DNA of 64,000 nucleotides from Amoebophrya sp. A120. Taxonomy: Eukaryota; Protista; Dinoflagellata. Numbering within the stretch: the first letter of the stretch is position 1; the number at the start of each line of letters is the position of its first letter. A program made the position numbers and the translations under genes. Location of the stretch: positions 2,375,065 to 2,439,064 of the forward strand of contig CAJINV010000003.1 of assembly GCA_905178155.1 (NCBI GenBank), in the 5' to 3' direction. The notes under the pieces are model-generated. The model worked only from the letters and a program-made list of their open reading frames with translations. It was not told where the DNA came from and ran no database searches. Below are positions 25,501-61,400 of the stretch, in pieces.

Positions 25501-28500
25501 AAAGTGATAAATAAATCTGTGCTGCGTGTAGTACTGCAGTCTCAGAAGCTGAAAAAATGGTGCTGAATGCTCGGCGTATGTTGACAAAAAAAAGCGACAT
25601 CACCAAACAAGTCGAATGAAATCATAAATCGCAGGTTGGGTTTTCCGATCGGCTGTACCTGCCGTTCAACCTCTCGCTGAAGCACATCAAGATTCGGCAG
25701 AACCTGGAGGTGTTCACCGGCACGCGGCCCGAGTTGTACGACGTGACGCGGTGCGCACCGGAGATTTTCGAGATTGTGGAGCAGCTGCGCGAGCTGAAGC
25801 GCGCCACCCGCATCCACCACGCCAAGGAGTACTTGAAGTGCTTTCCCCGGGTGGAGTGCTTGATCAAGCTGGAGATTCTCTATCAAATGCAAAAATGTCT
25901 GGGTCTGGAAGATTCTGGGACTTGTCATGCTCATTTTGCATGAGCCATGACGTCTGTGATGCATGCCCTAGCATCACAGATTTTTTCGGAGCTTCTTGAT
26001 GCCCATTCCGCACGACAAATGCCATCTCCGCCTAGCAAAAATTGCCTTTTCCTGGAATCCAAACGCAGCATCACAAGTTCCAACTCTTCCAGACCCAGAC
26101 TCTTTTGCATTTGATATTCTCTACGGCGACTACATTTCGGACGAGGAGTATGGAAGCGTCAGGTTTGAAATCGTCAAAGTTGAAATAATCTGTAATGCAT
26201 AAAATGCATGATCCGAGGTACTTGTGTTGCAGAGCAGGCAGATGACGCCATTGTAAGCCTGTTTGGGGTTACAGCTCGAGCTGTTAAAGTAGGATGAGAA
26301 AATCACTCTTCTTTGCCTAAACAGCATGACAAACTGGATTTAGGGACCACCGAAATTTGTCATGCGCCACTTGGGAACTGGGTTCCAACTGGCATCCATT
26401 TTATGCATGACAAATTATTTCAACTTTGTCGATTTCAACTCTGACACATCCATAAGGAGCTGGCGGGCGGCATTTCGCCGGAGCTGGCGGCGTACCTGAA
26501 GCGCAAGGCCGAGGAGGAGGCGGAGCTGGCGGCGGAGCAGGGTCTCGAGGTGCCGCACGAACAGCCGGTGGCGGTGGACACGGACGGGGTGGCCCCGACC
26601 GCGTCGAAGCGGGCCAGCGAGAAGATGACGCGCAAAGCCGCCCTGGACACGCAGAACACGGCGTTCGAGGTGGCGGAAGAGTTGAGGAGGACAAAGTCGG
26701 TGCCTATCAAAAGCAAACATGTCTGGGGCTGGAAGAGTGCAAGGTTTATTGTTATGCGCGTTTTGGATAGCCCGCAATGTCTGTGATGTATGCCCTAGCT
26801 GCATCACAGGCTTTCTTGTGCGGCCCTCCTAATGCCTGTCCTGCATGAGAAATGCCCGCCGCCCTGCAGCATAGACTGGATTGCTCTACTTGCGGTTCAC
26901 GCAATGCAGATTTTTTGAGCGTTCGAAGGCAGCATCACAGCTTGTAACCTTCCAGACTCAGTAGACACATTTGCAATGCATAGTGCCCAACCTGGTGCGA
27001 CGGAACATGGCGGAGGTGCACCAGGCATCGGAGGACAACACGCGGTTCAAGTCCATTACCAACTGTAAAAATGTCTTGGTCTGGAAGAATTCATGTTTGT
27101 CATGCTTGTCTGGCATGACTCTTAAATCTGTCATGCATGTTACCCAAGCGCTCCGTTTTTCTGTGATGCAGAAGCGCAGTTTGTCATGCAGAATAGGCAA
27201 CACCTAGGAGCTCAGAAACTTGTCATGCTAAGCCAGCCTCTGTAGCCTCATCATGAGACGCCACCCAGCATCACAAGTTTCCAGACCCAGACATTTTTAC
27301 TTTTGATATCCATGAGCAAAGTGACGCTGGACCTGGAAACCTTCCTCGACCCGCAGGAGGAAGTGTTCATCTACAGCGGGCAGAAGCTGCAGAGCAGCGA
27401 ACTGCAGAAACAGTACATGCGGGCCCAGATGTGGCCGCTGCAGGAAAAGTGCATGTGGACGTACTCCCCGATCTACAACAGCAGCGCCTTCGAGTTCGAA
27501 GAGCTGCCCACCGGGCGCCCGGGGAACGTGGCGATGCGGGAGGAAGTGCCCGTAGTGGGCAAGGTGCCCTTCCAGTACCCCAAGGCGCGGGAATCGGAGG
27601 AGTACAAGAAACCGCAGAGCGACGTGTCGGACTTCCGCAAGTGGGAACTGGAAACCTTCCCGTGGGCCGAGAACGAGTGGCACGGTCTCGCCGTCGGCGC
27701 AGAAAGAAGGAAACCCATCAACGCGAAAAAAATCTTCGACGCAGAGAGGGTAAGGAAGTGCCTACTAAAGAAGAAATTTTTGCGTGCGATGATTTGTTTT
27801 TTGGTCGTCCTGAAAGTAGCTTACGTGTAAAATAACATACGTTTGTTTTGCTTTTGCTCGCCACAGTAACATGGACGTTCCTTGTTCGTCCTTCAATCGA
27901 CTGAAACGTACGTGACGCTTTCTGAATTCTAGTCTGTTCCTCTTCACACCGCACAGGTTCCGCACCTGCGGGAGCACAACGACCGGCCGTTCGACGCGAG
28001 CCTGATCGAGCGCCGAAACCGGGAGTTCGGACCCAAGAGCATGAACGAGACGGTGCACGAGGCTGGGGTGGTCTACGAGAACCACGTGATCGAGATCAAC
28101 CGCAAAGTATCAAGAAGAAAAATCCCCCCTTCCCATATCAGAACAGAGATCTGTGATGCAGATTTGTGGTCACAAATCAGCTTTTTCATGCTAGAAGGCA
28201 AAAGCTGCGGGCTTTAGTGCTGGCTGGCGTGGGAAAGCCTTGCGTCTTCAGCATGACAGGAGGCAACTGGAAGTGGGAAACAGCACGAAAAATTACCTGC
28301 AATTCAGGCCACAACTGCGTCTCTTGGCCTTCTAGCAATACAAGCCGATTTGTGTACTCAGATGCAGCGTCACAGGTTTCGTTTTCGATATGGGGAGGGG
28401 GGATTTTTCACTTTGATACAAGGAGAAGGAGATTCGCGAAGCCGGGCGCATCGGGCCCGACGTGATGGGGTTTTACAACAAGGACTACACCAAAAACGGT

Positions 28501-29458
28501 GTCACCGACATCGACCGCTACGAGCAGATTCTGAAGGACAAGCCAAACATGCGCGCCATCCGGTTCGATCAGAAATTCATGCCGAAACCGATTCGAAAGA
28601 AGTACGGGAAGCACAGTATTCTAGAGAAAATTATCAAGCCGTTGCCGTCCTCCATGCGCATCGCAGAAAACTGGGACGAAACCGCGCCGCAGGTACAGAT
28701 CTTTGCTGCTCGATCGAATTTGTTCACACATGTGCTCGCATATTTTTAGTGCAAATGACTTGGTTGCAATGTTGGGGGGCGCAGAACACACTAATCTCAC
28801 TCTGATTATAGGTCGAGTACGAGGCTCGCATGCGGCAGAACGACGGAGATGCGCCGTATAATGTGAAGACGAACCTGTACCTGAGTCGTCACACGGAGAA
28901 GGACCTGCCGGGCTTCAACCCGACCTTGTTCACGAAGCGGAGCTTCCACGTGGGCAATATGGGTCCGGCGCCGTGGAGGCATCAGCAGATGACCTTCAAC
29001 AAGAACCGTACCCGCAGTCTGAAACAGATCAGCACCTCCATTCGACATCCGGCCTATGATTACGAAAAGAAATACGTTTCAAATCGAGATTTCGACAGGT
29101 AATTGCTACGAGCAGGGCCTTGTATTTAGTTGGCAGAAAGACAAAGTATGACTGGAGAATTCAAATTCTATCACTCTGTATTGCAGTTAAAAACCAAGGC
29201 AGAGTGATCGCACGGTTACACGGCCTGCCCAATCTTATCAGGAAATCGATCAAGAATATCAAAAGCCAGCACTCGAAAAACAACAGGTACTCGCGTCCCG
29301 CACGGAACTACGCGCGTGAAGACTTCATCGAGAAGAACGCTGCGAGAGAGGACATGTCTCCAATGGAACGAACGGGGCCGAAGTTCACCTACACGCAGCC
29401 TCTGCGCGAGCTCCAATACACGGGTTCGCTGGAGGACACGCGAAAAAATAACTACTAG
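22573..29458 (+). CDS. Large 14-exon protein, tentatively cilia/flagella-associated CFAP92(KIAA1257)-like
   Basis: In-frame exons 22573-22731, 22894-23208, 23394-23862, 24035-24500, 24681-25395, 25635-25880, 26122-26148, 26460-26704, 26988-27056, 27314-27749, 27957-28107, 28424-28692, 28812-29098, 29287-29458 (8 GT-AG introns and 5 IR/DR elements). MAPKPKKK start. Motifs LLIEVHDRD, PHGLARF and DILTGY..LD..CRIMVVEGL recall CFAP92-like proteins, from memory and unverified. Confidence 0.7.
25881..26116 (+). mobile_element. Introner family A element (236 bp), DR TTCTC/TTCTC, forward orientation
   Basis: TIR TATCAAATGCAAAAATGTCTGGGTCTGGAAGA / TCTTCCAGACCCAGACTCTTTTGCATTTGATA. Removal gives LEIL-YGDY. 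Confidence 0.95.
26149..26454. mobile_element. Introner-like element with ~58-bp TIR (306 bp), DR AGGAG/AGGAG
   Basis: TATGGAAGCGTCAGGTTTGAAATCGTCAAAGTTGAAATAAT... pairs with ...ATTATTTCAACTTTGTCGATTTCAACTCTGACACATCCATA. Removal gives SDEE-LAGG. Confidence 0.95.
26705..26982 (+). mobile_element. Introner family A element (278 bp), DR GTGCC/GTGCC, forward orientation
   Basis: TATCAAAAGCAAACATGTCTGGGGCTGGAAG ... CTTCCAGACTCAGTAGACACATTTGCAATGCATA. Removal gives KSVPNLVRR. Confidence 0.92.
27057..27308 (-). mobile_element. Introner family A element (252 bp), DR TCCAT/TCCAT, reverse orientation
   Basis: TACCAACTGTAAAAATGTCTTGGTCTGGAA ... TTCCAGACCCAGACATTTTTACTTTTGATA. Removal gives RFKSMSKVT. 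The internal marker TTTGTCATGCAGAATAGGCA is the reverse complement of that in forward copies. Confidence 0.92.
28108..28418. mobile_element. Introner-like element (311 bp), DR CAAAG/CAAGG
   Basis: TATCAAGAAGAAAAATCCCCCCTTCCCATATC ... GATATGGGGAGGGGGGATTTTTCACTTTGATA. Removal gives NRKEKEIRE. Confidence 0.92.
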
Positions 29459-30232
29459 AAGCCTGTGCGTTTGACCTCTTTAATGGCCGCTTCGAGAGAG
29501 GACATAGAACGCCTTGGCGATGGTTAAGAAATTAGACTCACGATGACTCACGAAAACTCACTCAACTAACTCAGATCAAAAACTTTTCACATTTTCTTTG
29601 GACTCACTCAACTGACACGAATAACTAACTCAAACTCAAAAAAAGACCACACTTCGTGGCAACCTATGGACTCTTTTGTTGGAACTGACTTTGCGAACAA
29701 GATAGAATGTACACCAAGAGAACAATGCGCTGTACCGAAATTTTATGAATGCTTTCGATGCTGGGCTGGGCAGCTTCTACCTGCAGGCCCTGCAAAAGCG
29801 AGGAAAACGAATCCAAGTACTCTCTACAGATCGAGAATACAGAACGGAGAAAAGAAAGAAAGTTTAGATTCAAAAACGATGCATATGTCGTTGGAGCGAG
29901 ACGGAAATGGAAAGCAAAGCCCCACGCGCGATCCTTTTCCATGTCGGCACGTGTTCTCTATTGGGGGTCGGAGGGAAGAAACAAATGAAGGAATGAGCTT
30001 GAAGATGGCATCGCTCACACGTCACTCTTGGCTTTGTCGTGCAACCGTGCAACCAATCACTGCCTTGCAATCAGCGATAGAAAGTAGTCTGCTTCAACAT
30101 CCCCCCTCCTCTCTACTAGTGCAAAATCGCGTCGTTTTTTTTGCGTCAAAGTATAAGTATCACCAAATTAAACTCGTTCCTGGATACTCTTCCCTCTCAT
30201 CCTCTAACACACAAAAATCTCCTTCACACTTG

Positions 30233-31588
30233 ATGCAGCTCTCTGTTCGCGGGAATGGTAAAACGGCGAAGCTTGCCTTAGAGCCGGATGACCCGTCGGT
30301 CGCCGAACTGCTTTTGGCGATCGAGCGGGAGCTCGGGATTTGCACCTCGCGGCAAGTGTGGCGAGCCGGGTTCCCGCCCAAGGTACTCGATACCGCCAAC
30401 GTTAGCACGGTGAAGGCAGCAGGCATACAAAATCGCGACGTGGTCACTGTGGCAGAATCAGAAGCTCCACTGCGGGAACGAATAGGGACCACTGGGTACC
30501 CTGCCGCAGAACAAGCACCAGCCGGTCCTCCTCCCGGGGGCGCAGCAACAGCGAGTTCCAGCGCAGCACCGCAGCATAAAAATGCCGGCGCGAGCGCAAC
30601 TCCCTCCGCGGTCGTCCCTGCCCTCCTTCAGGCCACAGACGGCGTGGAGAGGCACATTATTGCGGCCGACAATAGTTGCCTGTTCAATTCCATTTTGTGG
30701 AACTTCGGCCCACGGCATCCCAAGACGAGGACCCAAACAGGCACGACCATGACGCCGCAGGCTCTCCGCGGGGTGTGCGCGCAGGAGATCCGCGGGGATC
30801 CGAGCAAGTGGGACATGCTCACACTGGCGGAGTGCGACAAGCCGAGTCTGGAGTACGCCGACTGGATTTCCAAATCCGACTCCTGGGGCGGCTTTTTGGA
30901 GATGATGATTCTCTCGAACTATTTCCAGACCCAGATTGCCGCCGTGGACATCCGCACCGCGCGCCTGGAATACTTCCCGCACCTCGAGGGCTTAGAACCG
31001 GCGGAGCGGGAAAAGTACAAGGACCGCATGTTCGTGTACTACGACGGTATACACTACGACGCGTGCGCGCGGAAAACGGGTGTTGGGAACAACGACGGTC
31101 TAGTCTCCGGAAATGGCCTCTTTGCGGTGCAGGATGACGTGGCGCTCACGCAAGTCGTCGCGGCCGCGATCGAACTCAAGGAGCAGAAGCAGTTCACGGT
31201 GACGGCAACGTTCACGCTGCAGTGTCAACACTGTTTCAAGTTGCTCACGGGCGAAAAGTATCAAATGTAAAAATGTCTGGGTCTGGAAGATTGCAACTTG
31301 TCGTGCTAAATCTGCAGCATGCAAAAGTCTGTGTTGCATGATTACCAAAAGTCGTTCAGTTTTGACCAAGTCGGGAGGGAGTTTCTCATGCAGGATAGGC
31401 ATTAGAAAGGTCTCGCAGAGTCTGTCATGCTAGGTCCTGCAATCCAGACCTCATGGGTCATGGAAGAGCAGCATGACAAATCGCGCACTCTTCCAGACCC
31501 AGACATTTTTACATTTGATAAAAAGGAAGCGCAAGGACACGCGAAGGAAACAGGGCACTTCAATTTTCAAGAAGCACCAGGATCCTAG
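30233..31588 (+). CDS. OTU1: OTU1/YOD1 deubiquitinase (UBX-like + OTU + C2H2 zinc finger)
   Basis: N-terminal RQVWRAGFPPK. Catalytic motifs IAADNSCLFNS, SWGGFLE and YDGIHYD. The zinc finger CQHC..LLTGEK|EAQGHAKETGHFNFQE is complete only after removing 31259-31525 (exons 30233-31258, 31526-31588). Confidence 0.93.
31259..31520 (-). mobile_element. Introner family A element (262 bp), DR AAAAG/AAAAG, reverse orientation
   Basis: Perfect 32-bp TIR TATCAAATGTAAAAATGTCTGGGTCTGGAAGA. Splits the OTU1 zinc finger. The internal marker TTTCTCATGCAGGATAGGCATTAG is reversed relative to the copies at 26705 and 57304. Confidence 0.96.
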
Positions 31589-32160
31589 TTAGTAGCGCCA
31601 TGGAGTGCATAATTAATTTTCACTTTGCTTCGTGGACGTTTATATCAAGGATAACCACGAAAACGAGCGAGAAGAACACTCGCAACTCATTCCCAAGACA
31701 CACGACACAGGAACCTGCTTGACCTTGGCAATCGAAGAGTTTTCCCGTGATTGTTTGACGATCAATGACGTGTTCCATGAATCGTAATGCGACCACCGAA
31801 ATGAACATGTACATCTACATGCGTAGTCGTGTGTGTGTGTGCAAGTAGAGGACGGGGGTAAGGATCCAGTCACTCCAGCGAAAGCGATGCAGATAGTACT
31901 ACAGAAAAGTGACGCAGTAGCGGACATTCGCTGTTGCGGTTTTTTGGCGATACCACCATCGTGCTGTTTTTCGATCTCACTCGGTCGTCACTTTTCTCGT
32001 AAATATTACCGTCACGACCCTTGCTGCAGGCAGGATTTATAAAAATGAGTTCGGAACAACGTTTGATCTTGTTTCATCCTTGACGCACATTTTTACAGAT
32101 CGTAGGATATTTCTTAAGCGGAGCATTTTCGATTTTCCTTCTTCAAAGGTTGAATATCAG

Positions 32161-33702
32161 ATGATGAACAATTATACGAAGCGCGAGCCGCCTGAGGTGA
32201 TCGTTCTCTCCGATAGCGACGTGATTTCTGTTCCGGGGGATCGGGGCAGTACAGTGGGGCAAACTCGACCCGCGCCTGAGGCTCCTGCAGAAACAGACTC
32301 ACAGGAGCAACTCCTGTTCCCGAGAAAGGGCGGGAAGCAGCAGCCTACCGGATCATCTTCGGTTGGCGCCCAAAATAATAATCTTCCCGACTCTCAGGTG
32401 GTCTCTACGTCGCAGGTTGATTCACAAGAACAACTCGTTCTGCAAGCAGCGGCCTCCTTCAAGAATGCATCTTCGCACCTGAGGAAAAAAGAAAGTGTCG
32501 GACTCATTGCAACTGAGAATTATAACGATCAGAATTATGCCTCGTTCAGTCTTGGAGCTGGTTCTTCCAGTGGAACACCGTTTGGCGTCGAGAAAAAACT
32601 GAACAAGAAGGTTGTCACCTTTCGGGAATCGAGTAGCGAGGTGGAATTCGTGCTTGACCAATCCATATCGAGCGCCGTGCAAGATGGATCTATTGGGCAC
32701 CGGAACGATCCAGGTCTCAAGCGATTCAGTCCGGTTTTGGGCAATGGAGCCGGCACGGGAGGACAAGGTAGTAGTTCCTCGAGCAACTCTCCTAGTAGAG
32801 CGCCCCTCGTGGTGCCGAGCAGTCCCAGCCAGCACCCCCTAGGATCGCAGGCTCAACAATTCTCGCAGCGAAGTGCTAGCCAGAAAGGGACCCCTAGCAG
32901 TGCAAGTGCCAAGGGGCCGCGGGTGAAAACAAGAACGCCCGGGACGGGCGGGAGCAGGACGTCGAAAAAAGCGCCTAAAACGCCGGGAACAGCGAAGTCT
33001 GGAGCATCAAGTAAAGCGGCACGGAGCCAGCAAACGCCCGGTGGACCACCGCTCAGCGCGGGCAAGAGGACGCCGGGGCAGAAAACTACAACAAGCGGGA
33101 AGAGGAAGAACAAGGCCACACCAAAATCTTCAGCTCGGGAGCCGGAGAACCGGGATGAGTTTTATGATTTTGTGTACGAAAAATTGTCTGACGACGCAGT
33201 GAGTCGTTGGTGCTCGCATTTTGGCCTGAAGGTGAACGCGGGAAAAGCGTTTCTGGCACAGAAGCTGGAGGAGATTCTTCGGTTTGTCTTCGACGGGGAC
33301 GAGAAATCCTTTTTGCAGACGATAGCGAAAGCAGTCGTGCCGGGTTTTGGATCCAGTGTGATACCGTTAGGAGGAGGCTCGCAGCACAGTAATAACAGAA
33401 GGACACCAAACAGGAATAACGAGGGGCATCCACTGTGGTCCGCTGCTTTGTCTGAAGACGCAAATTATCACGCTAGTTCCCTCGAGCCTGAATCTGTACC
33501 TTCTGGTAACGACGAGAGTCTCGATGCGCGTCTCATTCACGCGGTTCGGTCGGAAACGGGTTTGTACGAACAAATGTTGCTTTTCACCCCGGTGCAACCA
33601 CTGGAAGTTCAAAAGCTCCTGCGTGAAAACCACAATATACGAATCGGCCTGCAAGTCTGCGTCGATTTCCTTGAGCGTAACAGTATTTTGTATTCGAAGT
33701 AG
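32161..33702 (+). CDS. SLX4: SLX4-like structure-specific endonuclease scaffold, intronless
   Basis: SIM-like EVIVLSDSD and a long disordered region. SAP-like YEKLSDDAVSRWCSHFGLK...LAQKLEEI and C-terminal SLX1-binding-like LIHAVRSETGLYEQMLLFTPV...DFLERNSI. Confidence 0.75.
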   Translation: MMNNYTKREPPEVIVLSDSDVISVPGDRGSTVGQTRPAPEAPAETDSQEQLLFPRKGGKQQPTGSSSVGAQNNNLPDSQVVSTSQVDSQEQLVLQAAASFKNASSHLRKKESVGLIATENYNDQNYASFSLGAGSSSGTPFGVEKKLNKKVVTFRESSSEVEFVLDQSISSAVQDGSIGHRNDPGLKRFSPVLGNGAGTGGQGSSSSSNSPSRAPLVVPSSPSQHPLGSQAQQFSQRSASQKGTPSSASAKGPRVKTRTPGTGGSRTSKKAPKTPGTAKSGASSKAARSQQTPGGPPLSAGKRTPGQKTTTSGKRKNKATPKSSAREPENRDEFYDFVYEKLSDDAVSRWCSHFGLKVNAGKAFLAQKLEEILRFVFDGDEKSFLQTIAKAVVPGFGSSVIPLGGGSQHSNNRRTPNRNNEGHPLWSAALSEDANYHASSLEPESVPSGNDESLDARLIHAVRSETGLYEQMLLFTPVQPLEVQKLLRENHNIRIGLQVCVDFLERNSILYSK

Positions 33703-34581
33703 GGTTGTTTTGATGACGTGAAGCGAAAGAGTAGTGCTAGTGGCAAGGACGTGGACGTCTCCAAGACAGCTACACTTTCATCATTCTCAGTTCGAACAAG
33801 GACCTTGTCCACAGAATTTGAAAATCGAGCGTTTCTCCGCTTGTTCACAGACGTGTTTCATCTCAGCTTTCTTGTGAATGTACTCAAAGAAGATGATGAA
33901 AAGAGTTATCGGTTGTCGTCCCCACAACTGCCAGTGTGCAAAAGATTTTGATTTCGTGCATCCGAAAAAAGCCCAAGTGTGTCGGTTATCAATAGTGCGT
34001 GCTGGAACTACCACTTCGTTCGGTCCGTGCAACCATGATTTTCGTGCCAAGAATTGCGTGCAAAGGAAATTAACTTTTTTCACCGCTCGTAGTATGCTGA
34101 AGAAACAAGTTTTCCTCGTTTACTTTTTCAGGAATCCATGTGAAATCCCCATTTTCTCCCCATGTTAGATCTCTCGTCCCCGTCAAGAAATATTCAACAT
34201 ACCACTTCGTACCACAACGTACGTTTCGTATTTTAGGTAGGATGCGTATATTGATTTGGAGGTAATCACCAGTTGCAGGCCTCTTTTTTACATTCGCGTT
34301 TGACTGTATAACTTGTTCACGTTTATTGAGGCCCTTGCACGAGGTGGGCAAGAAATTCAAATTAGACTCCTATATTACCGGAGCTACCGATACCGTTGTA
34401 GCGCCGAAGATGACGCAGGGCAGCCTTGCGCATGAAGGGTGAGTTTCGTCATTTCGCTGCCACTTGGAGTTCGATTCCGACCAAGCGGGTCATTCAAGGC
34501 TAAAACAAGTGTGCTAGAAGTTGTACTGCAACCAGGCTTGTCCTTTCTTTTTTAGTTTCCTCGTCTCGGTTTGGAGGCACG

Positions 34582-37500
34582 ATGCCTGAGGAAGAAGGAG
34601 CTCCGGACGAGGTGGCAATCGCCGTGGAGGGCGAGGACGAGGCGGAGGCGGGCGCGGAAGAACAGGCGGAGGAACAACCTGAGGAAGCAGGCGCAGAAGC
34701 CGACGCCACCGATGAGAACAAGGGACAAAAGAAGGTTGGATCGGGCAAATACATTTTCGATTCGGAACAGGTTAAAGAGGTACAAGACGACATTGACACT
34801 GCGGATGCCATACGCATTGCAAGAGATACCGATCTGCTGGTCTGGAACAAGATAGCAAATTTGTGATGTTGCAGCTCCCTGAAAACCAGATCACCAAAAA
34901 ATTCTGTCTCGCATGAATCCGAATATAAAATTGCCTTTTTTTTGTGACACGAACTGGGGAGTATTTTGCATCCAGGACGATGAGTGGAGCCTTGTCAGAA
35001 TCTGTGATGCTAGATCATGCATTGCAGAACTTGCGGGACCACGGAGGCATAGAAAATCTGCATCACAAGCAACTGCATTCTTCCCGAGGACCCAGACGTA
35101 CTACTTGCAATCCATACGCCAAAATAAGGAGTAGGCTCAAAGAGAAGCCAAGCACTCTCGGTCGCGGAACCACGCTCGCAAACCTGGAAAAGGCCACGGA
35201 CGAGAATAAATTTGCTCAAGTCGTCGCAACCGCGTTCGGAGAAGACACCGGGTAAGTAAGTAAACGTACAATTTCACCCTATTGACAATTACTGACGCGT
35301 CGCGGGATGCAATAAGGACATCAATACATAAAACTGACAGTAAATAAAAGCTTCCCACGACCGTTGCTCTTCTGCTTTGGTTTTTTTTGGAAGATCATAT
35401 TGTTCTTCCTCTTCGATAAAAAGGATGCTTAGAAGGTCCTTTTTGGGTGAGAAGACGGAAGGTGATGATTTTGCAAGAACTTATGCACCGGAATAAACGT
35501 ACAAATACAAAACAGCATCGGAAAGCATTTAAATGAGCAGTTGGCGAACCGAGAATCGCAGCAGGGGGCGTTCGCCGTGCTGCAGGGGTCCGGCCAGGGA
35601 CGGTCGATGGGGCGGCCGGCCAGTCCGGTCACGCCGTTGGTGCAGCGCGTATATTCCCTCGGTCACATGTTCGACGAGGAAGACAGCCCGCTGGCGAAGT
35701 GCGTGCGGGAGCGGATCGCGTATTTGCCGACGCGGATGGAGTTTATGGATCCCGACTTCGACTGGTTTAAGAGTCGGTGGACCAGTGCCAACCGCGTGGA
35801 GGTGGAGCCCCTGCTCTCCTGGGAAGACCTGATAAAGCTCCGATGGCGACACATGAAGAAGAACGTGGACATGTACTGGCAGGTGTACTCGACAGCCATG
35901 GCGGTCACAGTCTGGGGCACCACCTTGCACGTGGTCGACAAGGGCTTCATGGGAGGAGCGCCGATTGCGAAAGACTTCTTTCTGGAGCGAATGCAGCTGC
36001 CCCCGCAGATGTTCGGTATCTTATCTTTTTCACGCTCAGTTGTTTCCCTTTCTTTCTCGGGCACTTTGATTTTACGTGCCCACACCGCAAAGATAGAATA
36101 AAGAAAAGTAGAAGACCGACAAAATCACCTGATGGTTTGTTCACCATGTACCTTTTTCGTCCGAGCAGTAGACCCCTTCTCTTCTTGGATGTCGTTTTTC
36201 TTTCTCGACATCAAATGTTTCGAACGATATGAAAAAACCTGGTGGATGTTGTGAAATACAAACAAATTATCGATCAACGATAAAACAGGTATCTTCAGCG
36301 GCGTGATTTCCTTCCTGTTGGTGATTCGTGTGAATCTTTCGTACGGGCGTTGGTGGATGGCGCGGCAGGAATTGGAGAAGTTCGCTACCCAGTTTTACAT
36401 GTTCGCCATCACGCTCTGCTGCTGGGACCAGTTCACGGTGACCTCGGGGAAGGACCACTACCTGTTCCGCCGCCGCGTGTGCGGGTTGATTTCCCTAATG
36501 CACGCCAAGTGTTGCGAGGAGTTGCGCGAGAGCTACGAGTCGCCCTCCTTGGGGGACTGGTATTTAGAGGATTCCGTGCAGCGGACGATGAACGACCACA
36601 GTCTCGTTCAGGAGATCATCGGCGTAAACAACGACTCGGAGCCGGTCCGCGACAAGACGGCGCAGGTGTACGCGTGGCTGGTGATGCTGGTCTCCGGCCG
36701 GTTTTTCAAGTGCCACTTTGTCCCCCCGCCGCTCCTGACCCAGATGTTCGCGCTGATCCAAAACGGGATGCAGTCCTTCCACAGCGCGCTGGTGATCCGA
36801 AACACGGAGTTTCCCGAGCCCTTCACTGTGATTGTGGTGAACTTGAGTACGCTGATGGGGTTCCTGATCCCGGTCGTGATCCACCCGCTGCTGGACTTTC
36901 TGCTCTGGAAGTTTCTCCTGCTCACCATCGCCATGTACGGGTTCGTCGTCACGGGCCTGGTGGCCCAAATGCTCGAGGACCCGTTCGGAACGGACACCTT
37001 CGATCACCCACTGGATCAGTACCAGATAGACTTTGACATAGCCCTGATGGAGGTCATCGACAAGTTCGACTACCGAGTGCCCTTCGCCACGGAAAACGGC
37101 TTGCGGGAGGACGACTACAAAAAGGCGATGGCAGAAACCATTCGGTGGAACAACTGCGCCCCGAAGGCACCACGGGAGCGCGTGGGACCCACACAGGGCG
37201 CGCTACGGATCATTCGCAGGGTAGACGCCACAAAGGACGGTATAAGATTGTTCATCAGAGAAGTGGAAGTAGGGGACTCATTCGGTTTCGTTGGTTATCT
37301 TTTGTGCAGCATCGTCCTGCATCATAATACATCTCTGTGTGATCATCCGCTTGGCGTTGTTCATCTGATCCGCGCAGCATTCGCACCGAGACTCACAATG
37401 ATCATTCTTTTGCGCAGCTTTAGACCAGGTGACTTTAATATTGGCTGGAAGCACTGCCACTGAGTCTCGTCGACATGAAAATGTTGATTTTATTTCAACA

Positions 37501-37919: not shown

Positions 37920-38924
37920 GTGGATACTGAATTTGTAAGATATGTAGGCTAGACGTTGTTTATCAGAACGAAAGTTCTACGAACTACGTCTACTCTAGGT
38001 GTGAACCGCGATGGAACTACTGCGGCTGCTGTTGTCTATTCTTCCAAAAAAAAACATGTGAAAGTCTGCTTTCCCAAACAAGGTGAAGTTTGCCTGAAGA
38101 GCAAATCCCACCGTCGGAGAATTTCGCTGCAACATTGCAGGCGTCTGATGAGCAAGGTGGTTGTACTTACTAGAGATACGACTTTGATCAACATCTATGC
38201 TACAGACTTAGCATGGGAGAAAAAAAATATACCCGGAGAACCATGAATTTTCTTGTAAAATTAATAACGGCATAAACATATGTCAGTGAAGTTGTGCCAA
38301 TCTCAAAAGCTACCCCGGTACAAACAGAAGTATAAAGATATCAATCGGACTTCCAAAAAGCAACGTTTAAAAAACAGTATTACATTAGGTTGAAATGAAT
38401 ACTTGGATAATTATTCCGTTAAATGTCAAGTGTCTTTTACTTGCGTCTGTAATATGGCAATTGATTTCTAGAGGAAGACGGCGACAACCGCAGTACAAGG
38501 GCTACGCGTACCGGCGCCCAAGGCCGAAGCGTCGCATGTCTTGCAGCTGGCCCTGTTCTGTTTTCGGCTCATCGTTTGTGACAGTGAGTACTGTAACCGT
38601 TGTTCCCAAAATCATGCTCGAACATATCGGACGCAGAGCTACAGCTACGTTGCTCCTACCGCACGCAGATCGGTTGTCTAGTCGTACAAGTGATTCGGCT
38701 GGTGCCTTTTCTCGGTTACTGAGAGGAAGAAAAAAGTGTCGGTGTTGATTCGTCTTTTTCGCGTTTTGAGTTTCGGTCTGCTTCCGCATCCTTTTGCTGT
38801 CGGTTCTCCTATTTCTCTTTTCACGACAATGAGCTCGTGCTTACATCTGTGAGGTGCAGTATGAAGGTTTGTATCATGATTTTTCGTGCGCACTTACTTT
38901 TTGTTTTTCCTGAAAATTTACTCC

Positions 38925-41250
38925 GAAAGCGGGGGTCGTAGGGTCCGGGTCGCCGGGCCCGTCCAGAACTTGCGCAGTACTTCGCCGCGGATGTTTCGCC
39001 TCTGGAATTTCAGAGCCTGTCAGGCACAAGATGGAGTGGTCTTGCGAAGCTAACAAGTGCTCCCAGTGTCGCACTCCGCGAAACGGAGCCGGGCTGCTGC
39101 ACTGAGGTCGCCCCGGGGTCGGCCCCAAATGCTATGCGCCGCGCCAACATTTTGCGCCGGCAGAGGCTTCGGTGTGTCGGCGCCGCGCGCGCCTTCTCCT
39201 TGCTAGTTGCCCAAACCAGGCCGCGAAGACAGGCCGCAGGGACCGCCCGCTGGTGGCTTCAATTCCAGAGGCGTTTCGTTGTCTCCTTGCACACTTGTGC
39301 ACTTCGCGCAAATGAGCTGCTGTGGCAGCGCCATCGCGTAACGCACGTTACACGGCGGCTCTCTGTTTCACTTGTGCCTTCCCGGCCGTGTCAATAGTGC
39401 TCCCCGTGGCGGCCGCTTTAATTTCAGAGGCATGTCCTTGCCTATATGCACGCTTGCGCACGTTGCAAAAAGCTTGCCACCGCCGTGCCATCGTGTAACG
39501 CACGTTACACGACGGCCCTCTGCTCCGCCGCAGCCCCCTTCGTGTGTGGGGAGCTGTGTGCGAAAAGCCTTGCCGCTTTGGGTTGTAAGGAGGCGCCCTC
39601 GTCCTCTCCTCGTCTGGGTAAGGCGCCCGCCAGCTAGCCATAAGAGGAGCAAGGCGCTGCTGGCTCGCCTGCCGGGCTGCGTCTCTCACTCTTGGTAAGT
39701 GAGCAGCGGCCCTCGCCGTCGCCTTCGTGCCCTGGTTAGAGGAGGTGCGCCACTGTGCTCACCCTCGCTCGCTGCAAACAGGCGACGGCCCTTCTGTTTT
39801 GTTCCTGATGCGCCCCACCGAGAGGATTTCTTTTTCTTGTGGCTTGTGCTGGTTATTTCCATTTGTTCTGCCGCTTCTGATCTGCCGCTCGGTGGGTGCT
39901 CTGCTTCTTTCAGAGCTGCGGTCGGATCTTGGCTTGGTCATCCGCAACTTCTTTGGAGATTCGGTGTGAAGCTTCGTCCGGAACTTTTTCCACGATTGTC
40001 TCAGAACTTGGTTCAGAACTTGCAAAAAACTTGTTTTGGAACTTGCAAAGTTTTTTTTTTTGGCTTTTCTTTTTTTCTCGTTCCGCGATGGGATAGCCAA
40101 TTTCTCGCCTTTCTTTTTCGGTCTGCGAAACGTTTTTCTGCAAGTTCCGAGACAAGTCTTCGGACAAGTTCCGAGACTAGGTCCGGAAAAAGTTCCGAAA
40201 CAAGTGCCGCGGCAAATTTCTGAACAAGCCCCAGAGCAAGTAGCCCCGGAACAAGGCCCGGGGCAAAGCTCCTGCGTGTGCAAGGGCCCCGCGGGCAGGC
40301 TTCTGGGGCATTGGTTTCGGAACAAACTAGCTAGGCCCGCTACGTGGCCGGCCCATGAGGGTGGTCCGGGCCGTCGCGCCGGCAGGAGTGTGACGTCGGT
40401 CTGAGGCCGCCGACCTTCGCCACTGCCAGCGGGTCACGTCCTCTGGGAGGGGGCGGCGCTCTGGTGTGATCCGGTTAGAAGGCCTCGCAGCTTTAAAGGG
40501 CGGCCGTCGGACCGCCCAGGGGCGGGGCTTCCGGGACTCTGAAGAAAGGGCAACGGGGTTTCATGGCGTCGGAGGCAGCCTGGGTGCTGGCTCGGCGCAG
40601 CCAAGCAAGCTTGTCTCCCCCGCGGCGCCCGGTGTGGATGTGCCGGCCCCTGTCGTCGGGTGGGCCCGCGGAGACTGTTTCTATTTTGTTGTCATTGCGC
40701 GCGCGCCCGAAGCGCTTTGTTTTATCACATTCCAGCAAACGAAGCCGCGCGCCATCGTGTAACGCGCGTTACACGACGGCGTTGTCGTTTCGTCCTGTCG
40801 CCTGCTGCGCAGCTGTGGCATGCTTCCGGCTCCTGTAGACGCATTGTTTCACCACAGAGCGACACTCGCTCTCGCGTCCCCCCTCTGGCGCAACACCTCA
40901 AAGAAAGGCCTCCCTTCATGTCGTGCCGACAGCCGCGAGCACGGGCGCCCGCGCGGCTATAGGGGAAGCATGCTGCATCGCGCCCATCTTCGCTTGGTGT
41001 GCAAGCGTGTTGCCGTAGCGTTTGGTCGTCGCTGGGGTGGTTCGTCTCGGTGGGCTGCTGCCTCGCACCAACATGCAGCCAGCAACCACCTGAGCAGAAT
41101 AAACCCGTGGAAGGCTCCTCCTACTGGGGCTGGGCCCTCGTTGCCTGGCACCCCGGCGCCCTCTCGTATTGCCCCATCCGGGAATCGGCCCGACAAGTTC
41201 CGGGCAAGTTCTGTGCGAGTTCAGCGCCGCATACATCTAGACCCATGCTT
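38925..41250. other. Second GC-rich non-coding island with palindromes and 12-bp repeats
   Basis: Abrupt GC rise between AT-richer intergenic DNA. Three 30-bp palindromes and CAAGTTCCGAGA-like 12-mers (40141-40260). No credible protein. Confidence 0.5.
39330..40780. repeat. Three copies of a 30-bp near-perfect palindrome
   Basis: GCCATCG(T/C)GTAACGC(A/G)CGTTACACG(A/G)CGGC at 39330-39359, 39487-39516 and 40751-40780. Confidence 0.9.
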
Positions 41251-41536
41251 TCGGAGTAACTGAAAATTGAAAAAAACATGCTTTCTTATCCCAACTACAG
41301 GCAGTGGTAGTCCCACCAAAAGTTGCCGTTTTGGACTATCATTTCCACCAATTTTGAATTTGAACATCATCAAACCACACTTTTCTAAATTCAACTTTCT
41401 ATCACCCACTTACCTTCATTAAGCATGCATCGGAATTCATCAACCTTGTTTCGTTTTGATATCGGGTAACAGTCCGCATCCCGGCTGTTGTGAGTAAGGA
41501 AGGTTCATCTCCACGACCCGATATTGATTATTCATT

Positions 41537-47905: not shown

Positions 47906-49264
47906 ATGAGCACCCGGGATTCCAACCAGAAGGTGCGGGACCGCAAGGGGTCGCAGCGCAAAAGCCAGCGCGGAGGCGGCGGCAAGGACGGGACTACCGC
48001 GAAAAACAGCGGCGGCAAACCGAGTGGCGGGGGCGGGGGTGCGAGTTGGGAACAACAACAAGCCCCCAACTGGGACGCGCAGCTGGCCGCGGCGGAGAAG
48101 ACCAACAGCAACCCCTACAGCAACAGCGCCATCATGGAGGTGCTCCACAACATCGGGGAGAATCTGAAGGAGCACTTGCAGGACCTGGAGGTGGTGACCC
48201 AGAACATGCACGTGCTGGCCGCCGACATCAAGGACGCGCGCGACCAGAACGAACTGAACGCGACACTGAAGCGGATGCACGAGCAGAACGAGATGTCGCG
48301 GAAGTACGCGCAACGGGTGAAATCCGCCGTGCAGGACCTGCAGGACCTGCTCGACAAGCGGCGGTCCGCCCTGACCAAAACGGAGGCGGACTTTGGGGAC
48401 CGCGCGCTGAAGGAGCACTCGCGCCGGTTCCACGCCGCCATCAAGAACATGCTGTCGGCCCAGCATGCGTTCGACGAGGTAACCACGAAGAAGGTGGAGC
48501 AGCACATGCACCAGATGTACCCGCAGGCCAGCCCGTCGGACGTGCAACGGATGGTGCAGGAGCGCCGGCAGAAGGACCAACAGCAGCTCCAGAACCCGAT
48601 GGCGGACGTGGAGGTGGCACGCCAGGAGCTGGACCAGCTGGACGAGGAGGCCCAGGCGCTGTTTGAGCTGGAGGCGGCCATCAAGGAGACGGACGATATG
48701 ATGTTCTACATCAACGCGCTCGTTGAGGAACAGGCGGAGCAGATCATCGACATCGAGGACATGGTGTACGGCGCGCAGGCCTTTGTCGGTGCCGGCGTGG
48801 AACAGCTCGATGAATCGGAGGGCTATTTCAACAGGTACATCTCTGTTCTTGTTGTTCTTTTTCCTAGTTTTGATTTGCCTGTGTGCGTTCTTACCGCGCG
48901 TGTGTTTTTGATGTTTCCATCAAAACAATGGCAGCTTTGAGTTGGAAATTGACCTTGAACCACACGACCTGTGGTGGTGCAATTCTATTGACTGGTACCC
49001 AAAGAAATCTTTTTCTTTTGTTAATACTACAGCTACATGATCAAGAAGATTTGTCTGTCCTGCTGTTTCTGGTGCGGGCTTATCGCCGCGGTGGTTGTGG
49101 GTATCATTTTGTTGGTCATTTTTTGCGGCAACGGCGGCGGGGCGACGGAGGTGCATCTGGTTCAGAGTGCGGCGTCTTTTGTCGAAGAGAAGCACACCGC
49201 CGTTCGGCACGGGCTGCACAACTCCCACGGTCGCAGGACCTCCGCTTGGCTGTCCACCTTGTGA
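47906..49264 (+). CDS. Syntaxin (Qa-SNARE) paralogue 3
   Basis: Exons 47906-48834 and 49033-49264. SNARE motif ALFELEAAIKETDDMMFYINALVEEQAEQIIDIEDMV; TM GLIAAVVVGIILLVIFC. Confidence 0.88.
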
Positions 49265-50207
49265 AAAAACGAGCAGATCACGGCGTTTCCGTACTGAGAC
49301 TGACGCTCCGTAAAAAATTCCTTTATTGGAACGAATGTTTTCAGGAGGAAGTTGTTGTGGAGGAGTTTGAAGTGCGAACCGCTGAAAGGTCTCGCCGTTT
49401 GATGTTATTGCCGCTTTCGACAAGCGCCATGGAAATTTTGTTGGAGAAAGCTTGCTTCTATCAGAGGAGTTTGACACATTTTTACGACACAAACAAAAAT
49501 CACATCAGCAGTTGTGTACTAGTTGTAAAGAGATCTACTTTTTCGCAGGTGCCATTTTTACCAAAGAATTTCTAGAATTATCATTACTTTTCAAATCGTT
49601 TCCAGTACCGAAGTTGACGCAAATCTTGTTTAGCTTGCGAGTTGGAGGTGGTCTCGCAGTAACGAACCAAATTAAAGACGGATCGGATTCGGAGGTTCAA
49701 GACATTTTGTCACAACTCGGCGCTATAGTTGGTCGAAAAAATCTGACCGACTTTGGCAGCTGTAAGTAGGAGGTAATGCTTCTGTATCTTTTCCACAATT
49801 GATTCGATTCGAACACATTTCTTTTTTCTCTGTATCTCTACATGTTCTTCTACCAGCGAGCTCTACCTTGACTTCTACAACTTTTCTTTACAGTAACGAA
49901 CTTAACATGTGCTGCACAACCTGCTTTCTCTAAAATTAAACTATTACAGACGTACTTTCTGAGATCTTTCAAGTATAATACCGAAGGCAGTCGACAAAAG
50001 AATTTAGTAAAACGCTGGCCGCACAAGTGCTCTTTGGGATTTCGATTTGTGGTGTTCGACATGATTCGATGTGTTGCTGGATGTTGATCATGAGGTAATT
50101 AAAGGGCGCTCAGGTTCTGTGCCACCACGGCGAATAGCACGTTGCAAAAATTCTGCACAACCCTATCGTTCACAGAAAAGCAATTCAGCAAAAATTTGCG
50201 ATAGACA

Positions 50208-54036: not shown

Positions 54037-55809
54037 ATGAGCGAAGAGGCTTCTTTTGTGGAGCGCCAGCCCCTGCTGTTCCCTTCGGCCGGGTCGTCTT
54101 CCGCGGGCTCGCAAACCGCGGCCTTCTCGCAATACCTCAACCTGTTGGCGTCCGAGCTCACTGCTGCGCATACCGCGAGGCCCGTGTACGAGGAATTTTC
54201 AGCGTCCGTCGTCACATCCCCCGCGGACCTACCCGGTGTGCGGCAGTTGGTTGCTGGGGGCAGTTTGGTGGATGTTGGGGGCGTGCCAAACATGGACAAT
54301 CCGGAGCGGCACGACATTCAATTCGACCTCCCCGAACTGGCCAAGAGCGTCGTGCATGGAAGAACCACAACCAGCGGTACTAGTAGTGCAAGCAGCGCAG
54401 GAGCTGCCAGTTCTACTGCGGCATCAACGGAGTCGTGCCAGTGCCTGGGCGCGTCGGCCGCCGCCCCCATCGTGGCGGGGTGCAATGCGGAGGGGATTCT
54501 TTGCTGCACGCTCGTGGACGGTGGGGACACGGAAAACGCTGGCCATTCGGACTCCAAGTACACGAAAATCACGAGCGACAAGAAGTGGGGACCCCACGCA
54601 CTGCATGTGTACGACGAGGGCCCCCGGCAGCTCCTCGAGCTCCCGCCACCGGCAGGTCCCGGTCAGGAAGTAATAGACCCCTTCGCAACGCGAAGGTACG
54701 AACCAAACGGAAGAAAAGTCGGGTGTCTTGCCAACCTCTACATCGCGAAAAATCATGTAGTTCTTGCGACGGACAGTGTGAAGACTGTTGCAGGACCTCC
54801 TGCTTCGGCAGCACCAACTGGCGATAAAGATGCTGTGTTTACCTTTACATCCACACAGATACTCCGTGTCGAGGCAAAAAAACGCGTTCGCACGACTCCC
54901 AGATATTGTAAGGACAAATCCCATCGTCCCCGCATATTTTTACAGGATATTTCTAAAGATGGGTGATATGTGTACGCAAATAGATCTGGCTTTGTTCCCA
55001 CGCCAGACAGCACTACAGGCCGCATCTCTTCGCTGCTAGCAGGCAGCTTCAAGAACATTTGTGTTAACTTTATGAGTGAATGATGCTACACAGTTTTTTG
55101 AGTATGGGGAGGAGGGATCGTTTTTCATTTTGATACGAGGATACACAGCTTTACGCAGTGGTTGCGGACGACTCTGGAAGCCGAAATCCTGCCGCAGCTG
55201 CAAAAAAAGTTGGCTCAGCAGCAAGCAGCACACGACCCGTCGGCCAAGTTTTACCCGGATGATCACACCAGCGACGCGCGGGGCTTGGGCCTGGGAGGCG
55301 TCATTTTTGTCCGGAGCGGCTACGTGCACGGTCACGTAATGCCGGACTTTTTGCCGGAAAAGATCACCTCCGCGCAGCAGTGCAACGATTGGCTCCGGTT
55401 TTTCCTGTGCGGCCCAGGGCACTTGGTGATGTTCTCGACGCTTCTGGCCCTCCCCACCCCGGCGCAGCTGGAAAGGACACGGTATGCGGGGATGCACCTC
55501 CGCACGGAGCACACGCACTTTTTCGGCTCGGAGCGCTGCGCGAACCAGGGGGGCCACTACCACGGTGACGTCGTGCGGCAGCCGCCAGGGGCTGTGAAAG
55601 AAGCCACCAATCATGACCTTGATGCCGATGGTGAGCGGTACTTGGCGTCTTTGTTCGCGAACGCAGACAGAGAGAACCCTTCTTCAGCCGATATCCACTA
55701 CGTAGCATACCTGGCTCCAGCTGCTGAGATCGTTCGCATCAATGACGCGGAGAAGATACTTGCTAAACAGCAAAAAAACCTCCAGGTTGAGGGCGGTACT
55801 ATGAAATAA
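54037..55809 (+). CDS. Ester hydrolase C11orf54/PTD012 (DUF1907)-like zinc protein
   Basis: Exons 54037-54903 and 55141-55809. Motifs LVDVGGVP, CLANLY, ILRVEAKKR, GLGGVI, HVMPDF, LRTEHTHFF and GGHYHGD. Confidence 0.87.
54904..55135. mobile_element. Degenerate introner-like element (232 bp), DR CCAGA/CGAGG
   Basis: TATTGTAAGGACAAATCCCATCGTCCCC ... GGGGAGGAGGGATCGTTTTTCATTTTGATA, resembling the 28108 ends. Removing 237 bp gives RTTPR-IHSFTQWLR. Confidence 0.8.
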
Positions 55810-56691: not shown

Positions 56692-57625
<934 letters not shown>

Positions 57626-58483: not shown

Positions 58484-61400
58484 ATGAGTTTCAACGAGGA
58501 CAAGAAGAAAAAGAAGAAAAGCAAGCAGGGCACCACGCCAGCTTTGGACGAAGCGGCCGGGCGCACAACCAAGCAAGAGACCACTCCCACGATCACCGCA
58601 GAATCTGCTTCGTCAGTAGAAACTGCGGTCGTCGAATCGCCCCAGGGATCTGCTCTTGAGGGAGATAAAAACAGCGTGAAAGAAGTAGATGCAGCTGTGC
58701 CGCCTCTTGTAGTGCCGGATCCTGTTGGTGTTGCCGTGCCAACGGAGAAAAACTACATCGAGGAAAGCAAAGCATCGCGCAGCCCTTGCGTTCCTGCCCT
58801 GGTGCAGCCGTGTTGCGAGGCTCCTATCGCTAGTGGGTCAGAATCCGTCATCGAGGAAAATGCGCCGGAAGCGGACGTTGGCCAACCCAAAACCGCCGAA
58901 GGAATTCCACCGAAAGACGGTGAAGAAGATGAAGCTGCTCGGAATAATATGGAAGTTGCTGCCCTGACGCCTGAAGGCAAAAGCGACACCCAGGTCGTGG
59001 ACGCACCGCGAGGACTTCTTTCGGAGGAAAAAAGCACAGGCGGTTCGCGTCGTGTCAGTCGATTGTCTTCCGCCCCGTCGCCGGCAATCAAAAAGGCCCC
59101 GGGCGATGATGCGAGGTTCGAGGAACCTGGAGATCAACAAGATGTTGAGCAAAAAAATCCGAATCCCTCGTCCGGCGTGGTTGATGAGACGATTGTGCTT
59201 CCCGTTCCCGCGGAACAGACCACCGAGCATGCGAAGCCTGTCCCCGAGACTGCCACGCCCAACCGGTCGGGTTCCCAAGGTGGAACCGAACTCGCCAGCT
59301 TGGAGGTGGTACCCCTCCCGGAGGGCTCCGACCTGGAGTTCGAAGTCGAGGGGGCGGACGAAGAAGTGATGTTCATCGAAGACATATCCTCAGTAAAAAC
59401 GTACCCACACCAGAGTTGTAATGCAAATCTGCATGCTGAAAATGTTTCTCATGCGGAGCCCCATGAGAAGCATTTTCTAGTCGTGTTTTGCAATTTGTCA
59501 TGCTCCAATCAGCATGGTATGCTAGATCTGTGATGCTGCTGAGCTAGCTCAAACAGCACTACACTACGAATCCAAATTTGTCATGCAAAACAGCCAAAGC
59601 TTGTGGATTTGTCTAGCCGATTCCCCATCTTGACTATGGTGTGGGTACGTTTTTACTCAGGATAAGACAGCGCTTCCGGAGCGCTGCGGCACAGCACGCA
59701 CGACCCTAAGACGGTATCAGAATGAAAAATGCCCCCACCCCCGAACTTGAAAGCATTTGTATTGCAAACCTTTCCAAATGAAACATTCGCCCTCTTGCAT
59801 GTATCAGCATTACAGGTTTCCAATCGTGAATAGCAGAAATTTGTATTGCAAAAGACCCCAGCAAGAGCGGCGCTTGTCATGCAAGCGATGCGATACACGC
59901 CTAGACTCTGCATCAGAAAGATTCGTACTCCTTTCACGCATGACAAAAAGTTTTCATTTGGAAACTTAGCATCACAAATTTTTGCAATTTCAGGGGTGGG
60001 GGGCACTTTTGACTGCAATAGACGGGCACCGTGGTATACTCCCCCGATGGGACCCTGCCCGCTGACGCGGCACTACTGCCGCCGGCCTCGCCGGTGCCGC
60101 TGCCAGACGGAGTTGAACTGAACGCGGACGGGGGACTGGACATGAGCACACTCGAACGCGCGATGAGCCCGCATCTGCAGAAAGGCCCGATTTCCGCGAA
60201 GGAGCTCAACAAGCGGATCACGGAACTGCGGAACCACCACACCAGCCGGCGCGGGTCCTACGACGGCGAGAGCGGGGCGGACAGCAGCGCCTCGCCGGCG
60301 GCACGCCGCACGCACCGTGCAAAGAAGATGAACAAACGGGACACGACGACGACGACGACGACTGCCCAAGTGAATGGAATTGCTGAGGATGGTGTAGTTG
60401 GCCACGACTCGTCTTCTGGAGCTTGTTCGACCTCGGGGGTCAGCTCCTCTACCGAACCGCTGAGGACCGACGACGAAATATCCTGAGTAAAAACGTACCC
60501 ACACCAGAGTTGTAATGCAAATCTGCATGCTGAAAATGTTTCTCATGCGGAGCTCCATGAGAAGCATTTTCTAGTCGTGCTTTGCAATTTGTCATGCTCC
60601 ACTCAGCATGGTATGCTAGATCTGTGATGCTGCTGAGCTAGCTGAAACAGCACTATACTACGAATCCAAATTTGTCATGCAAAACAGCCAAAACTTGTGG
60701 ATTTGTCTAGCCGATTCCCCATCTTGACTCTGGTGTGGGTACGTTTTTACTCAGGATACGAAACTGCTGGAACAGGAGTTAGAAATACAGGTGATGGGAG
60801 TTGTAAACCAACTGCAACTGGTACTGGCGCCCAAAAAGTTGCTCTAGACGAATCCGCCTCTACAGCTGAGGCATCGACAACGACCGACCAGGACACAGGC
60901 ACCACCGCTTCGTCGTCGCTAGGCGACGAGGGCGGTGCTACAAAAGCAAAATCGATATCATGTAGTGAAAAGGCGGGTAACGGTACTAAGGACACTTTAG
61001 TCTTGCAGACCACCGCTGGTGCAGGAGCAGGCCCAGTAACCGCGGCGACCACGAGCAGCAGCACAGGCGGCAGCCACGAGGCCGGTGTAGTGATGCTGCC
61101 GCGCAGTGAGTCGGCTGTCAGTTTGCCCGCCATCAACTCCCGCGAGTTCCAGGATTTGGTGGACCAAAACCTGATTTTGGTGGACTGGGAGCGCGAGGAA
61201 GGCATCGGGGTGAAGACCGCGATCTACACCTTGACCGGATCTATCGTGGGTGCGGGCGCCGTCGCGTGCCCCTTTGCGTTTCAGTTCATGGGGCTCGTCG
61301 GCGGTTCGTTTTTCCTCAGCCTAATGGGGTTTCTCTCCGGGCTCTCGGGCTACATGCTCGGCATGGCCGCGCGGAAGACCGGGCTGCACTCCTACGAGGA

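Follow-up and report, generated by a model that had tools for sequence, protein, structure and literature searches.

In a 64,000-nucleotide window of the Amoebophrya sp. A120 genome (GenBank assembly GCA_905178155.1, contig CAJINV010000003.1, positions 2,375,065 to 2,439,064 of the forward strand), we analyzed 14 short intron-forming transposable elements (introners), 12 of which carry at least two exact copies of one octamer, TGTNATGC, in arrays that are conserved base by base and phased from the element termini. The analysis makes it reasonably probable that this array is a putative subterminal double-stranded DNA binding site of one transposase common to all families of these non-autonomous terminal inverted repeat (TIR) introners.

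A Shared Octamer in the Introners of the Window

The elements were collected without reference to the motif, by a search for TA(T/C)…(A/G)TA ends with flanking repeats that was finished by eye, and they range from 218 to 311 bp. Among the 43 exact matches to TGTNATGC in the window, 40 lie inside these elements (3,840 bp, 10.4 per kb), whereas the other 60,160 bp of the window, with all its exons, canonical introns and intergenic DNA, hold three (0.05 per kb), which amounts to a 209-fold enrichment. When the 14 elements were dinucleotide-shuffled 1,000 times, the octamer occurred 1.07 times on average and five times at most. A de novo ranking of 6- to 8-mers placed the same octamer first, and three GT-AG introns supported by RNA-type contigs contained no exact octamer and one match to a position weight matrix (PWM). 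This PWM, which was trained on 13 of the 14 elements (60479 being omitted as a duplicate), lengthened the site to about RRAYYTGTVATGCW and found 77 sites, at 20 per kb within elements versus 0.7 per kb elsewhere in the window. A preliminary description of this DNA had judged by eye that the motif is much rarer in exons and conventional introns than in the elements, and had proposed a de novo motif search with spacing analysis and a comparison with canonical introns; the counts bear this out, and the sites proved to be ordered, at set distances from the termini. The seven motif positions it gave for the element at 59715–60020 all hold within 1 nt, four being exact and three having one mismatch.

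The elements are as follows (window coordinates, no strand assigned; each duplication is the 5-bp flanking repeat, with both copies given where they differ).

25881–26116: family A introner, 236 bp, duplication TTCTC; sites +43>, +75>, +98<, +137<, and an inward site 42 from the right end
26149–26454: family E introner, 306 bp, duplication AGGAG; inward sites 43, 75 (left), 43 (right)
26705–26982: family A introner, 278 bp, duplication GTGCC; seven PWM sites
27057–27308: family A introner in the orientation opposite to 25881, 252 bp, duplication TCCAT; inward sites 42, 73, 106 (left), 34 (right)
28108–28418: family D introner, 311 bp, duplication CAAAG/CAAGG; inward sites 45, 77 at both ends
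31259–31520: family A introner of 262 bp that interrupts the C-terminal zinc finger of an OTU1-like gene, duplication AAAAG; inward sites 41, 72 (left), 43, 75 (right)
34811–35116: diverged family-A-like introner, 306 bp, duplication TGCCA/CGCCA; inward sites 52, 95 (left), 50, 91 (right)
44855–45164: family B introner, 310 bp, duplication TCGTT/TCCTT; nine PWM sites
54904–55135: degenerate, internally shortened family D element, 232 bp, upstream of a DUF1907 open reading frame (ORF); no PWM site of at least 8 bits, no exact octamer
57304–57566: family A introner of 263 bp within a ubiquitin-conjugating enzyme gene, duplication ACCGG/ACCGA; inward sites 43, 75 (left), 42, 73 (right)
59385–59664: family C introner, 280 bp, duplication AGACA; sites 33, 63, 112, 145, 195, in a single orientation
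59715–60020: family B introner, 306 bp, duplication GACGG; sites 59758(+), 59807(-), 59842(+), 59875(+), 59910(-), 59938(-), 59969(-)
60479–60758: family C introner, 280 bp, duplication CGAAA; eight differences from 59385, a separate insertion
62254–62471: degenerate family B element, 218 bp, duplication matching at 3/5, in an amino-acid transporter gene; three weak PWM sites, no exact octamer

The 5-bp duplication is exact in 8 of the 14 elements, matches at four of five positions in four and at fewer in two. The elements start with TA(T/C) and mostly have an A-run at positions 11–15, from which family E departs, and their target sites are GC-rich (59% GC) with no sequence preference. With their TIRs, constant duplication and lack of coding capacity, they qualify as non-autonomous TIR transposons, or miniature inverted-repeat transposable elements (MITEs). 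Once termini and motifs are masked, five groups with unalignable spacers remain (z>4 in 10 of 91 pairs, all within groups). The families had been called unrelated, which is right for their five sets of non-alignable interiors and wrong for the TA(T/C) starts, the A-run of most of them and the 5-bp duplications, which they have in common; they make more sense as diverged members of a single kind of transposon.

The Same Motif in Further Families of a Second Genome

Metagenome contigs scanned with the end-architecture pattern gave at least 146 loci, 142 of them in one contig series, and all second-genome figures here rest on the matches listed. These loci match the elements of the window and not its exons, which indicates another genome with related elements. 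A motif-blind finder returned 418 candidates on the loci listed (357 after duplicate removal) and 12 on shuffled loci; 341 were kept at no more than 420 bp and then 327 with at least four of five duplication matches. The resulting elements, at least 327, group into 14 multi-copy families, several of which have no counterpart in the window, and the PWM trained on the window alone revealed the motif in all 14, with 5–15 exact copies per kb. Among elements whose ends do not match the scan pattern, 197 of 207 carry at least one exact octamer. Outside the catalogued elements the octamer occurs at 1.26 per kb, above the corresponding rate in the window, which is probably due to uncatalogued or truncated copies.

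The architecture of the ends recurs as well. Positions 11, 12 and 13 are A in 590, 615 and 633 of the 682 ends (TA[TC] being set in the finder), and the flanking repeat is an exact 5-bp one in 208 of 256 elements (the finder demanded three of five) and an exact 6-bp one in none of the 256. Families 4, 7 and 9 also have another short word, GCACTAC or its complement, ahead of an internal site. The 4 of 146 loci outside the main contig series had no similarity to the elements and were treated as chance, as were pattern matches in viral contigs (three; none in another scan) and in prokaryote genomes (six), which also lacked element similarity.

Base-by-Base Conservation of the Core

Trees were built for nine families with 294 elements (179 after removal of pattern-matched copies), and changes on terminal branches were counted in gap-free context. 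Rates per site were 0.018–0.051 at the core positions, 0.087 at the degenerate fourth base, 0.087 in the spacers and about 0.06 in the TIRs, and CpG sites were not faster. Nearest pairs compared without a tree, at 8–15% divergence (36 unbiased pairs), gave 0.058 for the core, 0.159 for position 4 and 0.136 for the spacers. The core thus changes at about half the spacer rate while position 4 changes at the spacer rate itself, which means that the motif is read base by base and is under purifying selection. It is very improbable that the motif lacks a function and has merely come down from a common ancestor or arisen by internal duplications, or that it is an artefact of composition or CpG decay: the common termini, and with them a probable common ancestry, would suit a relic, but the cores persist where the spacers have become unalignable, shuffling yields at most 5 copies against the 40 observed, and the position-specific rates, with the core so much slower than the adjacent position 4 and no acceleration at CpG, largely refute it.

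The rates cannot separate selection on mobility from selection on splicing, since the terminal branches are longer than the insertion age implied by the duplication mismatches. Duplication-mismatch classes had identical rates, no same-site paralogous insertions occurred among the elements compared, and the youngest pairs, with changes at 2 of 77 core and 9 of 418 spacer positions, are too few to decide.

Helical Phasing from the Terminus

Depending on family and end, the first inward site starts 33–35, 41–45 or 53–56 bp from the terminus. The 16 family-distinct first-site modes form clusters at 32.5–37, 41.5–45 and 54–56, plus one at 61; their best period is 10.25 bp (R=0.63 at 10.5), and the phasing is significant both at a fixed period (p=0.0008–0.0015 under normal and uniform nulls) and with the period searched (p=0.008–0.011). 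In addition, neighboring sites in the same orientation have a spacing peak at 31–33 bp, or three turns. A general 10.5-bp rule for all site pairs was considered and is unsupported by the pair distances. A period of 10.3–10.5 suits B-DNA, and that of A-form RNA is about 11; with so few modes the latter is also compatible. A protein seated on one face of double-stranded DNA would need a period of about 10.5 bp, counted from the cut end, and for this reason the geometry favors double-stranded DNA and a transposase.

The same phasing and conservation would also be expected if a host architectural, DNA-bending protein bound the sites and aided transposition, the transposase reading TAT-N7-AAAAA only, and dependence on the helical face is typical of bending factors. 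The near absence of the motif outside the elements (three copies in 60 kb) would be unexpected for a general chromatin protein, and we hold this explanation to be highly unlikely.

A Proposed Common Transposase and the Evidence Against It

The preliminary description had also suggested that the motif is a shared binding site, active in either orientation, for a transposase or a dedicated excision factor. The shared, orientation-independent site is supported by base-specific selection, by helical phasing and by its presence in all families of two genomes, and as far as sequence can tell the geometry leans toward the transposase half. The enzyme is likely of the integrase type, because of the TA..TA ends, the short (5-bp) duplication and the GC-rich, unspecific targets. 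In the model that we propose, protomers would bind sites three, four or five helical turns from the cut end and again three turns further in, on the same helix face; a DNA-binding domain at the motif, with a catalytic domain at TAT-N7-AAAAA, would bring the two ends together, cut them and insert the element with a stagger of 5 bp. Spacers and TIR positions 16–30 could drift freely while the motif and its phase stay, which would explain the coexistence of hundreds of apparent families. Removal from RNA would be a separate step and may not need the motif.

Several observations weigh against this model. The families may share ancestry, which would make the phasing p-values optimistic and overstate independence; site pairs other than those above have no clear period (R=0.16 at 10.5 once 28–35 is excluded); and in families 2, 3 and 4 one or both ends have outward sites in place of an inward one. 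The motif/spacer rate ratio is 0.41–0.54 in every age bin, which fits selection on mobility and on splicing alike, and predicted RNA ensembles pair the two first sites in 7 of 9 window elements with a probability of at least 0.6. No transposase family was recognized by Pfam in the 58 scanned of 377 long ORFs (at least 150 aa; loci and window), and long TIR-bounded stretches turned out to be nested or paired short copies, with no autonomous element among them. Farhat et al. (2021; PMC7789003), in the text as available, report that they found no transposase in A120, and argue against transposases as the general means of mobilization.

An autonomous partner bearing the motif, for which a search had been proposed, was likewise not found in the window and the loci listed. 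One candidate, a 3.5-kb TIR-bounded stretch (L077), consists of two short copies, and another, 972 bp long (L053, 6538–7509), is a family A copy with an insert. The insert is about 700 bp, is flanked by a repeat of about 19 bp and has an A-rich end, like a retro-insertion. Unpaired element ends had ordinary ORFs alongside. At L080 (4002–4253), a 641-aa minus-strand ORF adjoins a family A element whose right terminus has decayed and which lacks a matching duplication.

Reading at the DNA or the RNA Level

Alternatively, the motif may act in RNA, either by inverted copies that lengthen the terminal hairpin or through a (double-stranded) RNA-binding factor that reads it during splicing. Element 31259 has a predicted fold with a very stable hairpin (z=-11.8) in which the left and right first sites are paired, the predicted ensembles cited above point the same way, and the predicted folds pair the termini too. 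The sense strand also has a slight excess of UGUNAUGC over its complement (328 vs 268 in 192 elements; 24 vs 16 in the window), inconsistent across families. Against an RNA role, position 4 shows no end-to-end covariation (its base agrees between left and right in 78 of 199, no more than under the within-family null), first-site distances are seldom equal at the two ends, and TIR mismatches on the sense strand have no bias of G·U over A·C (162 vs 150 in 180 elements). All nine families tested are found in both orientations in genes, including family 4, in which six of seven sites share one orientation; families 2, 3 and 4 have no symmetric pair, and the period of 10.3–10.5 from the terminus suits B-DNA. 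Taken together, an RNA role seems to us decidedly improbable.

Insertion into Exons and Removal from RNA

The elements are nearly confined to coding exons: 13 of 14 window junctions fall in ORFs of at least 120 codons, which make up 56% of the DNA, and the coding score is positive at 95% of 329 junctions versus 61% of background positions (window and second-genome loci listed). Host genes include those for a ubiquitin-conjugating enzyme, an OTU1-like protease and an amino-acid transporter. The codon phase of insertion is unevenly distributed: of 145 framed elements (second-genome loci L004–L149), 65 have the first duplicated base at codon position 3, 42 at position 2 and 38 at position 1. In the window, manual frames put most duplication mismatches at third positions, as if both copies were read as coding, but this did not replicate in the 145 framed elements, where 17 of 37 mismatches at the third position fit one free copy.

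Deletion of the element plus 5 nt restores an open frame at every window site. At 44855–45164, the element plus 5 nt equals 105 codons and the ORF 44795–45478 reads through it stop-free, so that retention would be in-frame. Comparison with RNA contigs covers 24500–36000; runs X3 and X4 were taken as RNA by guess, none being recorded as RNA, and they also skip GT-AG introns. Their contigs skip exactly the element plus 5 nt in five of the seven elements there: 241 nt (25881), 311 (26149), 283 (26705), 257 (27057) and 311 (34811). For the other two, RNA-type contig pieces stop at 28106 (28108 element) and at 31253 (31259 element). The oppositely oriented copies 25881 and 27057 are both removed, and where the duplication copies differ (34811 at position 1; 28108 at position 4, from the piece end) the upstream copy is kept. 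At 28103–28108 and 28419–28423, a cut one base before TAT would make the intron read GT…AG with borrowed duplication bases, and such borrowing could be the reason that A120 families are listed with GT, AT and other 5′ ends. A raw RNA run, X9, gave only two reads on 24500–36000.

The DNA-like run X1 has depth 0 at all five joints listed, although contigs may drop rare variants. Ciliate-type internal eliminated sequences are excised from DNA, so that their joined form would be expected as DNA, which the X1 depths at these five joints do not show. In bins that contain elements of families A, D and E the summed depth of X1 is 10^4–10^5, versus about 25 elsewhere, and 34811 is near single-copy.

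These features raise the question of whether the array serves intron removal. A host or domesticated DNA-binding protein on the phased array might loop the ends and mark the element for removal from nascent RNA, instead of splice-site choice by U1. Exact removal in either orientation and from any flanking sequence, the location almost solely in exons, the lack of an RNA-pairing signature in TIR or motif, the better conservation of the motif than of the TIR on terminal branches (0.044 vs 0.06) and the fact that U1 small nuclear RNA is undetected in A120 (PMC7789003, available text) would all agree with such marking. However, element 54904, which has no strong site, would if retained bring stops in every frame ahead of the DUF1907 ORF; it is probably removed from RNA without the motif, which hints that removal may not need it. 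The 13 copies in flanks of low coding score keep the motif equally well (0.028 vs 0.037 in the rest; a small, noisy set), and transposase binding accounts for the geometry with no extra assumption. We therefore regard such marking as unlikely.

A bolder form of this idea, which we rate as quite unlikely, is that the introns are defined on DNA: a domesticated transposase-like protein would bind the phased TGTVATGC array, synapse the ends as in a transpososome and dictate the exact removal of the element plus one 5-nt repeat from the transcript, whether by co-transcriptional cutting and ligation or by polymerase skipping the looped element. If true, DNA-defined introns would replace U1 and splice-site sequence, and the transposon could insert harmlessly anywhere in exons.

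Other Features of the Window

A 2,342-bp intergenic element at 38918–41259 has a 13-bp TIR, an exact 8-bp flanking repeat and internal palindromes; with no clear ORF and no exact octamer, it is of a different transposon class. A repeat-rich, non-genic block at 12600–17050 contains tandem units of 23–39 bp and short inverted repeats, lacks the motif, and includes a 463-aa ORF with no Pfam match. Three similar tandem genes at 41540–49270 are syntaxin-like by eye, with no Pfam syntaxin match on the exons scanned.

Comparison with Known Systems

The window elements match the published introners of Amoebophrya A120, and the elements themselves are known. According to the text of Farhat et al. (2021; PMC7789003), A120 introners have inverted repeats that start with TAT, followed by seven variable bases and an A-run, and direct repeats of 3–5 nt; they are repeated in the genome, have non-canonical junctions with no GT-AG dependence, measure about 240 nt and lie in co-oriented genes. 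The GC content of the window, 51.5%, compares with 48.8% AT tabulated for A120 (PMC12005148). That text, figures excepted, deals with inverted and direct repeat motifs only and keeps 1,954 families separate, with no description of an internal motif, a spacing rule or selection. In the available text of the literature, including PMC7789003, PMC12130899, PMC11282704, PMC12005148 and bioRxiv 10.1101/2020.10.14.339549, we came across no account of the internal motif, of its spacing or of its conservation; figures, theses and subscription papers could show it. How A120-type introners move and splice without U1 or a recognized transposase is presented as an open question (PMC7789003). One conserved, phased site in all families implies a single trans-acting machine behind many apparent families, and the array offers a bait for pull-downs, a signature for the autonomous element and a basis for mutants that separate transposition from splicing.

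Among integrase-type transposons, A120 family 38, annotated as Ginger with a 5-bp target site duplication and TA/TA termini (Gozashti et al., 2025; PMC12130899), is alike by description in its duplication, termini and TIRs; at about 810 bp and with homology of the long terminal repeat kind, it differs from the elements here, which mostly measure 100–350 bp and have no ORF. IS3EU/GingerRoot elements also have TA..TA termini, TIRs and GC-rich, unspecific targets (61% there vs 59% here), but as described they have a 6-bp duplication, are kilobases long, encode a transposase and are not presented as introns (PMC10045372; PMC6839031). Given the exact flanking repeats counted above in the loci listed, 5 bp in 208 of 256 and 6 bp in none, we did not file our elements under that group. 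Ginger1 and Ginger2 were set aside for their TG..CA termini (PMC6839031) against TA..TA here; Ginger1 has a 4-bp duplication and Ginger2 one of 4–5 or 6 bp by source, so that the 5 bp found here agrees with PMC10045372 and not with PMC6839031.

Euglenid non-conventional introns are similarly TIR-bounded and non-canonical, with duplication-like junction repeats, whereas their end consensus is another one and the available text mentions no such internal array (PMC11282704). The closest parallels to the array itself are Hermes, whose BED domains are reported to bind subterminal repeats (PMC10368747), and the MITE Emigrant, whose subterminal repeats are bound by Lemi1 proteins (PMC1636448); in both, short subterminal repeats lie inside the TIRs, in both orientations and asymmetrically between the ends. 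Here, in contrast, one longer site, with binding as yet inferred, recurs in helical-turn steps across at least 14 families whose TIR interiors differ. Subterminal repeats are common in DNA transposons, and the concept is not new; what is new is a single phased site across many intron-forming families.

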